A stretch of DNA of 64,000 bases from Gemmatimonadota bacterium (GTDB taxonomy: Bacteria; Gemmatimonadota; Gemmatimonadetes; Gemmatimonadales; GWC2-71-9), in NCBI GenBank assembly GCA_037440225.1, contig JBBIUN010000013.1:10936-74935 (forward strand). Reading direction: 5' to 3'. This document shows, in pieces, positions 198-4,533 of the stretch. Each line of letters starts with the position of its first letter. Positions within the stretch are counted from its first letter, which is position 1. The notes beneath the pieces are model-generated. The model ran no database searches. It worked only from the letters and a program-made list of their open reading frames with translations, and was not told the origin of the DNA. Both the position numbers and the translations under genes were made by a program.

Positions 198-755
198 CTA
201 CGGCTCCCCGGCAGGCCTCTCGAACCGCGCTTCGAGTTCGACGCCCAATCCCTGGGCCATCCGGTTCACGAAGGCGTAATACCCCGTGATGGCGCAGATG
301 TCGTGGATGGCCCGGTCATCGAATCCCGCCTCCCGGAGGCGCTCCACGTCCGCCGCGGTGACGCTGCTGGGGCGTTCGGTCACCAGGATCGCGTACTCCA
401 GCATGGCCCGGTCGGCGGGGCTCAGGTCCACGCTCCGGAAATCGGCCGCCAGCGCCGCCACGAACTCCCGCGCCGCGCCCGCTGAGCGGCCACTCGACTG
501 CAGCAGCTGACGGAGCCCCGCCCCGTGGTGCGCCACTCAGTAGTGGCAGTGGTTGGCGGCGGACACCACCACCGCGATCATTTCCCGCTGGACCCGCGAG
601 AGCGGGCCTGGCCCCCGCATCAGCTCCCGGTAGAACTCGTAGTGCTGCCGCATGATGCGGGGGTGCACGCCGTGGATGCGCACGATGTTGTCCCGGTCCG
701 GAACCCGATCTTCCGGCGGGATGTCTTGGTCCGGGACGTACCGGATGAACGCCAG
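198..755 (-). CDS. AhpD / carboxymuconolactone-decarboxylase-family peroxidase-related protein with in-frame TGA (537-539) at the second Cys of the CxxC motif (C-H-Y-U): candidate selenoprotein
   Basis: Listed ORF 198..536 is only the C-terminal half. My translation upstream in the same frame gives LAFIRYVPDQDIPPEDRVPDRDNIVRIHGVHPRIMRQHYEFYRELMRGPGPLSRVQREMIAVVVSAANHCHY-TGA-VAHHGAGLRQLL..., the AhpD-core NxCxYCxxHH signature. There is no ATG/GTG/TTG in frame upstream. The best start is CTG 753-755, 5 nt after an AGGAG SD that overlaps the TlpA stop, so the start is uncertain. Confidence 0.7.
510..526 (-). promoter_or_regulatory. Candidate bacterial SECIS hairpin for the AhpD-like UGA
   Basis: The mRNA is ACGGGG-CGGGG-CUCCGU (6 bp including one G-U, G-rich 5-nt loop). 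It begins 10 nt after UGA 537-539. Fold not computed. Confidence 0.45.
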
Positions 756-763
756 GCGCGCTC

Positions 764-1303
764 CTACTGGCCCAGGAGGTCCGCCACGAACATGCGGTTG
801 GCGGGCTCCGACCAGTCGGCCTCGAAGGTTTTCTTGCGGATCACGCCACCGCGGTCGATCACGAAACTCTGCGGGACCCCGATCAACTGATAAGCCTGCT
901 GGATGGCGCCGGTGGGATCGTGCCAGATCTCGAACGTGAGCCCGTACTCCTGAGCGAAGGCGTGGATGTCCGCTTCCGCGCCGGCGTCATCAACGCTCAC
1001 GGCCACCACGGCGAGACCCCGCGGGCCTAGCTCCTGGTACAGCCGCTCGATGCTGGGCATCTCACGCCGGCAGGGATCGCACCACGTGGCCCAGATGTTG
1101 AGCAACACGACCCGGCCCCGGTATTCGCTCAGCCGGACGGTCCGCCCCGGCTCGCCCGGTCCCACCCGGCGAGCCACCACCTCCGGTGCCGGGCCGCCCA
1201 CGTCCACCGCGGCCGGCACCTGAAGCCGCGCCAGGCCCAGCACCGCCCCCACGCCGCCCCCCACGCACAAGGCAGCCACGAGGTACCACCGGGAACGGCT
1301 CAC
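764..1303 (-). CDS. TlpA/ResA-like membrane-anchored thiol:disulfide oxidoreductase
   Basis: 179-aa ORF with an N-terminal TM helix and thioredoxin-fold active site NIWATWCDPCRREMP. GTG start overlaps the upstream TGA stop (GTGA). Confidence 0.9.
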   Translation of the reverse strand: MSRSRWYLVAALCVGGGVGAVLGLARLQVPAAVDVGGPAPEVVARRVGPGEPGRTVRLSEYRGRVVLLNIWATWCDPCRREMPSIERLYQELGPRGLAVVAVSVDDAGAEADIHAFAQEYGLTFEIWHDPTGAIQQAYQLIGVPQSFVIDRGGVIRKKTFEADWSEPANRMFVADLLGQ

Positions 1304-1908
1304 CGGATAGCCTCCAGCGCTTCCAAGATCATGGCGTTCGACGGCCGGATCTTATAGTTCACCTCCGTAAACTTCCAGCGCACCACGCCTTGCCGGTCTA
1401 TCACATAGGTCGTGGGATGGGGAATCCCCCGCGGGTCGTCCGGATTGAGCAGCCCGTAGCGGTTGATCACGCGATGCCCCGGATCCGACAGAAAGACGAA
1501 CTCCGGCCGCCGGCCGTCCTCCTGGGCAATCCGATCCGCCATCTTCTGCAGATCGGCCTTGGGATCCACGGACACCGCGAGGATCTCGGTTTCCCGTTTT
1601 TGGGCCGGGGTCAACAGGTCCCTCAGCTCGCCGAGCTGACGCGCGCAATAGGGTCACCAGTGGCCCCGGTAAAACACCAGCACCACGTTCTTGTGGCCCC
1701 GGTAACTCGATAGGGTCACCACGCTGCGATCCAGCGCTTCCAGCGTGAAATCCGGAGCCACATCACCGACCTTGACGCGGTTCAGATCGCTAGGCGGATC
1801 CGTGGGGCCGTCCTTGGGCCCGAGCGCCGGCACCCCCTGGGACCAAAGCTCACCACTCCCCGCCAGGACCAGCACCAGCGCCACCCTCGTCGCCATCGCC
1901 AGAGACAT
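1300..1908 (-). CDS. Secreted peroxiredoxin (AhpC/TSA-redoxin family) with in-frame TGA (1654-1656) at the peroxidatic Cys position (W-U-P-Y-C): candidate selenoprotein
   Basis: ORF 1300..1614 and the tail of ORF 1654..2559 share one frame and are separated only by TGA. The joined sequence is MSLAMATRVALVLVLAGSGELWSQ...[69 protein letters not shown]... ATG 1906-1908 is preceded by GGAGGGAGG. A signal peptide is present. Confidence 0.75.
1623..1639 (-). promoter_or_regulatory. Candidate bacterial SECIS hairpin for the peroxiredoxin UGA
   Basis: The mRNA is UCAGCUC-GGC-GAGCUGA (perfect 7-bp stem, G-rich apex). It begins 14 nt after UGA 1654-1656. Fold not computed. Confidence 0.45.
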
Positions 1909-1928: not shown

Positions 1929-2156
1929 CTAGGCCACCACCAGCTCCCGCAGGCGCTCCAGCAGTTCCTTCGGCGGCTTCGGCGCCGCCTCTCGCTGCCG
2001 AGCCAGCGCTTCGAGAAAGGCGAACTCGTAGCGGTACTGCGGGTAGCAGCGCGCACACTCGGCCAGATGGGCGGCGATCTCCTCGGTCCAGACGGGATCC
2101 AATTCGCCGTCCAGGTAGTCCCACAAGCGCTCGATCACTTCCCGGCACGATACCAT
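1929..2156 (-). CDS. Zinc-binding anti-sigma factor (ZAS, RsrA-like)
   Basis: 75 aa with the H-x3-C-x2-C motif (HLAECARC) plus N-terminal Cys4. ATG directly abuts the sigma-factor TAG (TAGATG). Confidence 0.85.
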   Translation of the reverse strand: MVSCREVIERLWDYLDGELDPVWTEEIAAHLAECARCYPQYRYEFAFLEALARQREAAPKPPKELLERLRELVVA

Positions 2157-2738
2157 CTAGCCCACCTCCTCCCGCGACCGCAGCAGGCCAGCGTCCTCGG
2201 CGTAGGCCAAGAGGTCCTGCTGCAACAGCCTCCGGCCCCGGAACAAGCGCGAGCGGACCGTTCCAATGGGAACGCCCAGCACGCGCGCTGCCTCCGCGTA
2301 CGATTGGTCCTCGATGTCCACCAACATCACCGCCGTCCGATACTCCTCCGGCAGCTTGGCCAAGGCGCGCTGAATCGCCTCCGCCAAGTCGCTCCGCTCG
2401 AAGAGCGCCCCTTCCGGATCCGCCCCCAGCACGCTGGCGTGGATGCCTGCCGCCGCCAGGGCTTCCAATGCGGCATCCTCCGTGACGACCTCCCGCTCCG
2501 CGCGGTGCATCCCCTTGAGGAAGGCGTTGCGGCAAATCGTAAAGAGCCAAGCCCGGCAATCGGTCCCCATCTCGAACTGATCCCGGTGGGCCAGCGCCCG
2601 GACGTAGGTCTCCTGGACCAGATCCTCGGCGCGAACCGGGTCCCGCGTGAGCGCCAAGGCAAACCGATAGACCGCATCGGCCGCTGCCAACAGTTGGCTT
2701 TCGAACGTGGGACCCGGGGTCTCAGCCATCGTCTCCAC
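2157..2738 (-). CDS. ECF-type RNA polymerase sigma-70 family factor
   Basis: 193 aa with sigma region 2 (DLVQETYVRAL...) and region 4 (EEYRTAVMLVDIEDQSYAEAARVLGVPIGTVRSRLFRGR). Start is GTG 2738 or ATG 2729. Confidence 0.9.
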   Translation of the reverse strand: METMAETPGPTFESQLLAAADAVYRFALALTRDPVRAEDLVQETYVRALAHRDQFEMGTDCRAWLFTICRNAFLKGMHRAEREVVTEDAALEALAAAGIHASVLGADPEGALFERSDLAEAIQRALAKLPEEYRTAVMLVDIEDQSYAEAARVLGVPIGTVRSRLFRGRRLLQQDLLAYAEDAGLLRSREEVG

Positions 2739-2798: not shown

Positions 2799-4151
2799 TC
2801 AGAGCAGGTACGGCACGTCCGATCCGGTCGTGGGGTAGGCATACAGCTGGTGCTTGAGATCCGAGGCCAGCACTCGGGATCGGATGGCCAGCGCGAAGAG
2901 GTTGATGACCTCTTCAGCGTGCGGCCCGAGCAGGTGCGCCCCCAGAATCCGGTCCTCCCCCTCCGCCAGGACCACCTTGGCCATGGCACAGGTCTCTGCC
3001 ACCCGCCGTGCCGAGTACCAGCCGGAGGTGTCTTGCTGCTTCACGCGAAGGGGAATCCCCTGGGCCCGGGCCTCGGCCTCGGAGAGCCCCACCGCCGCCA
3101 GCGGCGGGATGGTAAAGGCCACGCTCGGCACCCCGCGATAGTCCGGTGTGTGGTTGTTGCCCTCGAGGAGATTGGAGGCCACGATAGTGCCCTGATAGCC
3201 GGCCACCGGGGTGAGCGGCGCGGCCCCGGGCGAAGCCGCCACGTCGCCTGCCGCGTACACCCTCGGGTTGGTGGTGCTTTGCAGGAACGCGTTGACGCGG
3301 ACCCCGCCGCCGGGCTCCACCGCGACCTCCGCAGCGGCCAGGTCGAGGTGTTGGGTGTTGGGCACTCGCCCGCCACCATGAACCACCGCATCGGCCTCGA
3401 TCGCCGCCTTCCCATCCAGCCCGGCGAGTTCGACCCTGAAGCCGCTCCCTCGCCGCTCCACCGCCGTCACGGCCATCCCCAGCGCAAGCTCGACGCCCAA
3501 ACCCCGGGTGTGCTCCACCAGCCGCGCCACCAAGTCCGCATCGAAGCGCTTCAGCGGCTGGCCGCGGCCGATCACGATCGCCTGGGCACCGGCCCGCTGA
3601 GCCACGTGAGCAAACTCGAAGGAGATGTATCCGGCGCCCAGGAACGCCACCCGAGCGGGCAGTTGGTCCAACTCGAGGAACTGCGTGCTGGTCAGCAGGT
3701 GCTCCTCGCCCGGAATACCGAGACGCCGCGGTCTCGCTCCGGCAGCGATCACGAAATGGCGCGCGGTGAGCGTCTGGCCGTCCACCGCCAGCTGATCCGG
3801 CGCCACGAAGCGAGCCGGCCCGCGGTAGCACTCGATCCCGGCCCGCCGGAAGGCCGCGACGCGGTTCTCGGGCACGGGGTCGGTGAAGGTACGCTTGAAC
3901 CGCATCAGCTCCGCCCACGAGATCCGGGTCTCACCGGTGATGCCGCGGCCCTTCAGGCGGCGTGCCCAGTCGGCAACTTCCGCGGCCCCCACCAGCACCT
4001 TCTTGGGATCGCAGCCCCGCAAGGCGCAGGTGCCCCCGAACGGCAATTCGTCTACCACGGCCACCCGCCAGCCGGCCCGCCGGCAGCGGTATGCCGGCGC
4101 CGACCCCCCTGAGCCGGTGCCGATCACGACCAGATCGAAGCTCGCCGTCAC
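2799..4151 (-). CDS. Pyridine nucleotide-disulfide oxidoreductase (glutathione-reductase / dihydrolipoamide-dehydrogenase superfamily flavoprotein)
   Basis: FAD fold DLVVIGTGSGG and redox-active GGTCALRGCDPKK. A second dinucleotide fold is VAFLGAGYISFEFA. GTG 4149-4151 is preceded by AAGGAGA. The longer listed ORF start (4274) lacks support. Confidence 0.9.
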   Translation of the reverse strand: MTASFDLVVIGTGSGGSAPAYRCRRAGWRVAVVDELPFGGTCALRGCDPKKVLVGAAEVADWARRLKGRGITGETRISWAELMRFKRTFTDPVPENRVAAFRRAGIECYRGPARFVAPDQLAVDGQTLTARHFVIAAGARPRRLGIPGEEHLLTSTQFLELDQLPARVAFLGAGYISFEFAHVAQRAGAQAIVIGRGQPLKRFDADLVARLVEHTRGLGVELALGMAVTAVERRGSGFRVELAGLDGKAAIEADAVVHGGGRVPNTQHLDLAAAEVAVEPGGGVRVNAFLQSTTNPRVYAAGDVAASPGAAPLTPVAGYQGTIVASNLLEGNNHTPDYRGVPSVAFTIPPLAAVGLSEAEARAQGIPLRVKQQDTSGWYSARRVAETCAMAKVVLAEGEDRILGAHLLGPHAEEVINLFALAIRSRVLASDLKHQLYAYPTTGSDVPYLL

Positions 4152-4194
4152 TCGCTCTCCTTGGCGTCGCAGGTTTTCTGGCGCGGACGCGGGC

Positions 4195-4533
4195 TCAGCC
4201 GCCCTGCCGCAGCACATGGGCCAAGGCGCCCTTGAGGCTGGCCAGGGCTTTGACCCCCTGCCCCTTGGCCACACTCTCGGCGACGCACGTATCCATGTGC
4301 CCCTGCAACAATTCCACGGCCACGCCGTTGATCGCCTGCTTGACGGCGCCGATCTGGATCAGGATGTCGTCGCAGGAATGGTGCTCGGCGATCAAGCGCT
4401 GAATCCCGCGAATCTGCCCTTCGATGCGCCGCAGGCGATTTTGGATCCGGCGTTCCACCGCCGGCTTCAAGTACACGCTGGGCAAGCAAGTGCGGGCCAT
4501 ACTCTCTGCCGTCGCGTCTGGGGACGCGCCCAT
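4195..4533 (-). CDS. csoR: CsoR/RcnR-family metal- or persulfide-sensing transcriptional repressor (C-H-C type)
   Basis: Carries RRIEGQIRGIQRLI...HHSCDDILIQIGAV...LQGHMDTC (Cys, then His-x3-Cys). An alternative start is ATG 4500 (MARTCLP...). Confidence 0.85.
   Translation of the reverse strand: MGASPDATAESMARTCLPSVYLKPAVERRIQNRLRRIEGQIRGIQRLIAEHHSCDDILIQIGAVKQAINGVAVELLQGHMDTCVAESVAKGQGVKALASLKGALAHVLRQGG

Follow-up and report, generated by a model that had tools for sequence, protein, structure and literature searches.

Reading Frame and Protein Set

A stretch of 64,000 nucleotides from a Gemmatimonadota bacterium (assembly GCA_037440225.1, contig JBBIUN010000013.1, positions 10,936 to 74,935; hereafter, the window) contains on its minus strand an AhpD-like gene that is interrupted by an in-frame TGA codon and has CTG at the position of the start codon. 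This raises the question of whether the locus encodes two small proteins, a decaying gene or one full-length selenoprotein. The evidence makes it highly probable that the product is an intact 185-residue cytoplasmic AhpD-like thiol/selenol oxidoreductase, with UGA 539-537 recoded as selenocysteine (Sec) and translation most likely starting at CTG. The features of the gene are listed below in window coordinates.

198-755, minus strand: coding sequence of the putative AhpD-like (TIGR01926, CMD fold) selenoprotein, 185 residues including Sec73, stop TAG 200-198; based on translation, profile matches and full-length alignment to 17 homologs
753-755, minus strand: CTG, probable initiation codon, orthologous to ATG/GTG in relatives
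761-765, minus strand: AGGAG, Shine-Dalgarno-like motif, overlapping the stop codon TAG 766-764 of the TlpA-like gene, 5 nt upstream of CTG
537-539, minus strand: in-frame TGA, probably read as selenocysteine U73, second position of C70-H-Y-U73, aligned with Cys in CxxC homologs
546-548, minus strand: TGC, Cys70, first Cys of the CxxU redox pair, nearly invariant in the alignment
510-526, minus strand: predicted core hairpin of a bacterial selenocysteine insertion sequence (SECIS), stem ACGGGG(C)/(G)CUCCGU, G-rich apical loop CGGGG; based on comparative evidence and folding

A single minus-strand frame runs from CTG 755-753 to TAG 200-198, and TGA 539-537 is its sole interruption. The full frame reads LAFIRYVPDQDIPPEDRVPDRDNIVRIHGVHPRIMRQHYEFYRELMRGPGPLSRVQREMIAVVVSAANHCHY-TGA-VAHHGAGLRQLL...PAGEP-TAG, and its part around the TGA codon is ...REMIAVVVSAANHCHY-TGA(539-537)-VAHHGAGLRQLL.... 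Thus, the frame described in the first-pass annotation, namely an AhpD-like one with TGA at the second cysteine of CxxC (C-H-Y-U), is seen in the minus-strand sequence and its translation. Public gene calls either divide the gene into two parts, one of about 72 (or 48) residues and one of 112, or translate TGA as Trp or Gly. A fusion of the upstream TlpA-like protein with the AhpD-like protein by read-through was ruled out, as the two frames are offset by one base.

A scan of one genome per species gave 80 related loci, and the addition of close relatives from a protein look-up led to a set of 83 rows, including the window. TGA was found at the Sec codon in 83/83 loci, and TAA or TAG never occurred at this position, which answers the comparison of orthologs proposed in the first-pass annotation in favour of a conserved UGA. 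According to the record titles, the hosts belong to Gemmatimonadota, Acidobacteriota, Planctomycetota, Calditrichota, Ignavibacteria, Chloroflexota, Marinimicrobia, Lentisphaeria, Fidelibacterota, Desulfobacterota, Synergistaceae and Eisenbacteria. The codon located 3' of TGA varies across the loci (GTG, ATC, ATT, CTG, ACG and others), which leaves most of them without a separate start codon for the C-terminal half. The ratio of non-synonymous to synonymous substitution rates (dN/dS) among close relatives was 0.11-0.26. Split or decayed orthologs, frameshifts and TGC at the Sec codon, any of which the first-pass annotation had regarded as fatal to its reading, were not seen, and dN/dS among the alleles with CTG was at the lower end of this range (0.11-0.14).

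A set of 122 protein sequences (120 best protein matches and two cluster members) was sorted by the residue in the Sec column. It was found that 39 sequences had CxxC, 27 had "CxxW" and 4 had "CxxG", and 20 were C-terminal fragments starting right past the Sec site. The "CxxW" and "CxxG" database entries (P0001, P0002, P0004, P0007, P0012, P0017 and others) are gene-caller artefacts in which TGA was translated with alternative codes; for "CxxW", this follows from P0004, the one entry checked, whose W is an in-frame stop under translation table 11. Translation of this kind in metagenome gene calls masks selenoproteins as seemingly full-length proteins.

Predicted SECIS Hairpin

The 17-nt hairpin ACGGGG-CGGGG-CUCCGU, which had been noticed 10 nt past the UGA codon, is present at 526-510. 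The published model of the bacterial SECIS (bSECIS) asks for an apical loop of 3-9 nt that has G in its first two positions, an upper stem of 4-16 bp, a distance of 16-37 nt between UGA and the loop, and a minimum free energy of at most -7.5 kcal/mol (PMC13188914). The hairpin agrees with all four bSECIS criteria: its loop CGGGG is 5 nt long, or 3 nt given a C-G closing pair, and has G at the second position and G next to it; the stem contains 6-7 bp; the loop begins 16 nt past UGA; and the folding energy amounts to -9.0 kcal/mol.

The hairpin was compared between orthologs in an alignment of 82 distinct sequences without gaps. In the six stem pairs, 91.7% of cells were paired, with double-sided changes in 4/6 pairs. 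None of 500 shuffles (0/500) attained the observed values, and slid registers gave a pairing of only 29-52%. In Planctomycetota, including Pirellulaceae, entirely different yet complementary stems were found at the same place, such as GGCCAA/UUGGCC in locus L071, GUCGC/GCGAC in L070 and ACGCAG/CUGCGU in L075. Planctomycetota loci L047, L057, L070, L071, L027 and L031 contain other complementary stems with GGUCU/GGUC loops 13-30 nt past TGA. The peptide motif shifts along with these stems, for example HHARGLR or HHGQGLG instead of HHGAGLR.

Since the hairpin overlaps the conserved peptide HHGAGLR, a codon-level control was applied. The results are listed by position relative to the Sec codon.

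Gly +5, stem: GGA or GGG in 69/71
Ala +6, stem to loop: GCG in 63/63
Gly +7, loop: free variation, 1.73 bits
Leu +8, stem: CTC in 68/82
Arg +9, stem: CGT in 64/77

Elsewhere in these genes, Gly, Ala, Leu and Arg columns had a codon entropy of 1.4-2.2 bits, and CGT and GGA were rare there. The proposal of a SECIS with compensatory changes is thus supported by the bSECIS criteria, by covariation and by frozen synonymous sites. Taken together, the 82 orthologs show unusually clearly how a SECIS is embedded in the conserved HHGAGLR, and they include the fully compensated stems of Planctomycetota.

The hairpin shares with the minimal SECIS of E. coli fdhF and with the bSECIS consensus a short upper stem-loop at a fixed distance past UGA and an apical-loop G(G/U); the GGUCU loops of the Planctomycetota orthologs resemble the fdhF loop. 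Unlike the fdhF element, the window hairpin has a different stem sequence and overlays the conserved HHGAGLR codons, so that protein and RNA constraints are superimposed. As proposed here, hairpin 526-510, whose loop begins 16 nt past UGA, would act as a bacterial SECIS and recruit SelB with Sec-tRNA(Sec), and selenocysteine would then be inserted instead of termination.

A separate observation concerns the locus of the cysteine homolog P0005 (L090:3001-3540), where a perfect ACGGAG/CUCCGU stem carries the loop CGAAU instead of CGGGN. It resembles a fossil SECIS, as a recent Sec-to-Cys conversion would leave.

Protein Family, Fold and Active Site

On NCBIfam TIGR01926 ("peroxidase-related enzyme"), whose curated cutoff is 81.8 bits, the product with Cys in place of TGA reached 130.5 bits, with residues 23-172 aligned to profile positions 31-173 of 178. 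The Pfam CMD family gave 63.5 bits. The TIGR00778 ahpD core domain (51 positions) was matched with 43.2 bits, and there was no other AhpD-named model among the NCBIfam matches. The nearest PDB entries by sequence were 3c1l, 2pfx, 2oyo, 2prr and 6k40 (E from 4.5e-30 for 3c1l to 3.8e-20).

For structure modeling, the closest cysteine homolog, P0005 (59% identical), served as a stand-in for the window protein. Its AlphaFold model is all-helical (predicted local distance difference test, pLDDT, 88.9; predicted template modeling score, pTM, 0.87) and showed template modeling (TM) scores of 0.83-0.86 to 3c1l, 2prr and 6k40. Similarity to the Mycobacterium tuberculosis AhpD entries 1knc, 1gu9 and 1lw1 was weak (TM 0.52-0.57, E 0.01-0.04). 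The window protein is not an equivalog of the M. tuberculosis-type AhpD: its sole match of that kind is the core domain, and the structural match is weak. The proteins 3c1l (Mlr4105), 2pfx, 2oyo, 2prr and 6k40 (Deinococcus radiodurans AhpD) belong to the same subfamily and share with the window protein the active-site helix N-x-C-x-Y-C-x-x-x-H; unlike it, they contain Cys for Sec and a longer and different N-terminal segment. M. tuberculosis AhpD (PDB 1knc, 1gu9) shares the CMD-type all-helical fold, the CxxC-type redox pair and the Glu/His proton relay, and differs in having His132 (here Tyr) and Cys133 (here Sec).

Glu58, Tyr72 and His77 are invariant among the aligned homologs, and Cys70 is nearly so. 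Selenocysteine at the attacking position is usual in Sec/Cys pairs. The first-pass annotation had placed TGA at the resolving cysteine; this was wrong, because in M. tuberculosis AhpD it is the second cysteine of CxxC, Cys133, that makes the disulfide with Cys61 of AhpC, and Cys130 is partly buried (PMC6626918), so that Sec73 stands at the attacking position. The spacing of E58/C70/Y72/U73/H77 is equal to that of the proton relay Glu118/Cys130/His132/Cys133/His137 of AhpD and of Glu36/Cys48/Tyr50/Cys51/His55 of PA0269 (PMC3141380). In the proposed mechanism, Sec73, at the position of the attacking Cys133, would form a mixed selenosulfide that Cys70 would resolve, with Glu58, Tyr72 and His77 at the putative proton-relay positions.

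The P0005 model (m854342955aa0) also matched the thiol-dependent debrominase Bmp8 (PDB 6ohi, 6ohj) with TM 0.77-0.78 and E of about 3e-5, in line with a fold that supports chemistry besides peroxide reduction.

Start Codon

The position of the start codon was considered together with the two genes that directly precede the AhpD-like gene.

764-1303, minus strand: TlpA/ResA-like thiol:disulfide oxidoreductase with a WCDPC motif (ResA 104 bits, TlpA 87 bits, Pfam AhpC-TSA/Redoxin)
1300-1908, minus strand: putative peroxiredoxin-like (Prx-like; AhpC/TSA family) selenoprotein, TGA 1656-1654 in W-U-P-Y-C, then hairpin CAGCUC-GGCG-AGCUG

In-frame canonical starts are found at GTG 683-681 (a 48-aa open reading frame (ORF) is listed from there), GTG 668, ATG 653 and other positions; the earlier statement that the N-terminal 73 codons contain no in-frame ATG, GTG or TTG is therefore incorrect. 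None of these codons occurs between the upstream stop and codon 25. The choice of CTG 753-755 as the best candidate in the first-pass annotation, with AGGAG 5 nt ahead of it and over the TlpA stop codon, held up: the motif is present at 765-761, all close homologs have their Met/Val start in the column of this codon, and six assemblies share the CTG as a fixed feature. All full-length homologs (17/17) start with M-A-(F/Y/H/W)-I at the L-A-F-I column of the window. Behind the same AGGAG, the orthologous start is ATG in L001 (90% identical), GTG in L003 and ATG in L004. Across the 83 rows, ATG was found in this column 57 times, GTG 12 times and TTG 4 times, and CTG in the window only. If CTG initiates, the predicted N-terminal peptide is (M)AFIRYVPDQDIPPEDR.

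The same CTG was present in five other assemblies, namely the NCBI metagenome-assembled genome GCA_037441545.1 (L085) and four Logan assemblies of other runs (L086-L089). A sequencing or assembly error was thus ruled out, as these assemblies come from other samples. Contig JBBIRZ010000009.1 of GCA_037441545.1 carries the whole operon as well. The coding sequences of this clade differ by 7-17 bases, and the frame, TGA, hairpin and Shine-Dalgarno motif are intact in all of them. The spacers between AGGAG and CTG differ (GAGCGCGC, GAGGGCAC, GAGAGCGC), and AGGAG is kept in all six alleles. There were 3 non-synonymous and 12 synonymous codon changes in the clade (P of about 2e-5 under neutrality), which corresponds to the dN/dS of 0.11-0.14 given above. 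Because the frame, TGA, hairpin and Shine-Dalgarno motif are intact and dN/dS is low, the gene appears to have been expressed and functional after the switch to CTG. In table 11, CUG is recognised as a near-cognate start. Taken as a whole, these comparisons indicate that the CTG is real and is probably the start codon.

The stop codon of the TlpA-like gene is located only 8 nt upstream of CTG, and the stop codon of the Prx-like gene overlaps the GTG start of the TlpA-like gene (GTGA); coupled re-initiation at the AhpD-like gene is therefore plausible. Initiation would most likely take place at CTG 755-753, probably with low efficiency; the suitably spaced AGGAG and the ribosomes that terminate 8 nt upstream would help it. 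There is about an even chance, in our estimate, that a selenoprotein gene of this gemmatimonadal lineage has CUG as its conserved and functional initiation codon, which would operate via the strong AGGAG and termination-reinitiation coupling to the TlpA-like gene. It might have been fixed because translation of a UGA-recoding mRNA is throttled in this way, e.g., to suit a limited capacity for Sec insertion or the stoichiometry required in the redox operon.

Probable Selenocysteine Decoding and the Prx-Like Gene

The Prx-like gene is located two genes upstream of the AhpD-like gene, and its hairpin CAGCUC-GGCG-AGCUG starts 17 nt past UGA 1656-1654. The TGA codon and the hairpin of this gene are kept in L001, L003 and L085-L088. 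The Prx-like copies of L050 and L051 (Marinimicrobia, Lentisphaeria) have a different stem sequence, CAGUUG/CAACUG. Since the Prx-like gene of the same operon also has a conserved TGA, the lineage very probably decodes Sec. The first-pass annotation had seen in the AhpD-like gene a second selenoprotein of this operon, and the TIGR01926 score above the cutoff, TGA in 83/83 loci, and hairpin covariation with frozen synonymous sites all speak for it.

A tRNA scan of the 64-kb window revealed no tRNA and no selC, and a scan at gathering thresholds gave no Rfam match, including the curated SECIS family. A tblastn search of the window with E. coli SelA, SelB and SelD gave no match, though this was a weak test. 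tRNA scans found no tRNA-Sec in the flanks of 92 related loci. A literature search yielded no usable information on whether Gemmatimonadetes have the Sec trait.

Alternative Readings

The same selenoprotein could start at GTG 683-681, in which case the first 24 residues would be absent and CTG 755 would be an old start no longer in use. This is the first canonical start in the frame, the ORF list begins the N-terminal ORF there, and the gene calls of L087-L089 contain a 48-aa gene of matching extent. In the P0005 model, residues 1-22 are largely coil and were predicted less confidently (pLDDT 64-79), alignments to the solved relatives and to the TIGR01926 profile begin only near residue 22, and CUG is a poor initiator in E. 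coli. However, GTG 683 is not preceded by an AGGAG-like motif (the upstream sequence is CCGGGACAACATC), whereas the AGGAG located 5 nt ahead of CTG is kept in the six alleles despite the varying spacer. The 24 N-terminal codons show no non-synonymous change in the clade and are conserved in comparison with the ATG and GTG sisters, and codon 683 corresponds in homologs to a conserved I/V/L position of DNI[VIL]RIHG, not to a start. A start at GTG 683 is accordingly considered unlikely, though it deserves more weight than an early pseudogene, in which the ATG/GTG start would have been lost, the gene silenced, and TGA and the hairpin left as undecayed remnants. Such decay would fit the uniqueness of CTG in the locus set, where ATG, GTG or TTG occupies this column in 73/83 rows, and the fact that the N-terminal part is uncalled by gene callers in L085 and L086. 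It is made improbable by three diverged CTG alleles (dS up to 0.09) that keep the frame, TGA, hairpin, Shine-Dalgarno motif and stop, and by the purifying selection in the clade, for which neutrality was rejected as stated above.

Least probable of all, to the point of being hardly credible, is a TGA codon acting as a true stop, either between two small proteins (72 aa and 112 aa) or within a split or decayed CMD gene without selenocysteine. The separate listing of the two halves in public gene calls, the GTG directly 3' of TGA in the window and the fact that Sec machinery was not seen in the window would agree with it. Yet the stop is always TGA and lies exactly at the catalytic Cys column in every locus, across many phyla; the codon 3' of it is usually not a start codon; and neither half alone contains the whole CMD fold. 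The covariation of the hairpin and the synonymous constraint also argue against a true stop, as do the second gene with TGA at a Cys position in the same operon and the status of AhpD-like CxxU proteins as an accepted selenoprotein family.

Several observations weigh against the favoured reading, i.e., a full-length selenoprotein started at CTG. The folding energy of the 76-nt region is unexceptional in its G+C-rich context when compared with shuffles (z = 0.42) and was not used as evidence. The closest Cys-form genes, of which only three are distinct, keep 6, 4 and 5 of the 6 stem pairs and have lost the GGG loop (CGAAU, GCAAC, UCUGG). The conservation of the stem could thus partly be inherited or protein-driven, although these three genes may themselves be recent Sec-to-Cys conversions. 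The genes selA, selB, selC and selD were not found within the 64-kb window. As for the start, the first 24 codons of the CTG clade contain 0 non-synonymous changes and 1 synonymous change, a pattern consistent with translation from CTG at a divergence too small to test alone, and CUG initiation in E. coli reaches about 1-2% of that of AUG (bioRxiv 10.1101/063800).

Relation to Known Selenoproteins and Gene Neighbourhood

AhpD-like CxxU selenoproteins are known from the Sargasso Sea selenoproteome, where 27 sequences (COG2128) were reported and a SECIS was shown (Zhang, Fomenko and Gladyshev 2005; PMC1088965). In the Global Ocean Sampling (GOS) data, AhpD-like proteins were the fourth most abundant selenoprotein family, with 299 sequences in AhpD-like 1 (PMC2398784). 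A 2026 review lists "AhpD-like protein, TIGR01926, CxxU" and notes that selenoprotein genes of the Prx-like and AhpD-like families cluster in operons (PMC13188914). Both the family, whose Sec variants the first-pass annotation had correctly called known, and its pairing with Prx-like selenoprotein genes are therefore already published. The window gene shares with this family the TIGR01926 match above the cutoff, Sec as the second residue of the CxxU pair, the SECIS directly downstream with an apical-loop G and the Prx-like selenoprotein neighbour. Nothing different in kind was found; the window copy has CTG where the other 73 aligned loci use ATG, GTG or TTG.

The new elements are modest, namely the lineage-fixed CTG start and the clean comparative view of a SECIS superimposed on a conserved peptide. 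General knowledge of selenoproteins is unchanged by this locus. The CTG start offers, on a small scale, a concrete natural case in which near-cognate initiation in bacteria can be tested, and annotating the gene correctly recovers a redox enzyme of full length and an operon with two selenoproteins under an extracytoplasmic function (ECF) sigma/anti-sigma pair. The genes located further upstream are listed below.

1929-2156, minus strand: zf-HC2 anti-sigma factor (ORF; Pfam families of syntenic genes in L001, L003, L085)
2157-2738, minus strand: ECF sigma factor (ORF; Pfam families of syntenic genes in L001, L003, L085), head of the gene string
2799-4274, minus strand: pyridine-nucleotide disulfide oxidoreductase (flavoprotein disulfide reductase), upstream in the same orientation
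4195-4533, minus strand: CsoR-like metal-sensing repressor, upstream in the same orientation

A promoter and terminator scan gave nothing useful. By inspection of the translations, hydrophobic leaders are present at the N-termini of the Prx-like and TlpA-like proteins but not at that of the AhpD-like protein; therefore, a direct AhpD-to-Prx relay inside one compartment is not established. The gene order with the ECF sigma/anti-sigma pair, the disulfide reductase and the CsoR-like repressor was also found in L001, L003 and L085. These genes, upstream in the same orientation, would fit an oxidative or thiol-stress regulon, and the two-selenoprotein string suggests a stress-controlled thiol/selenol redox module.

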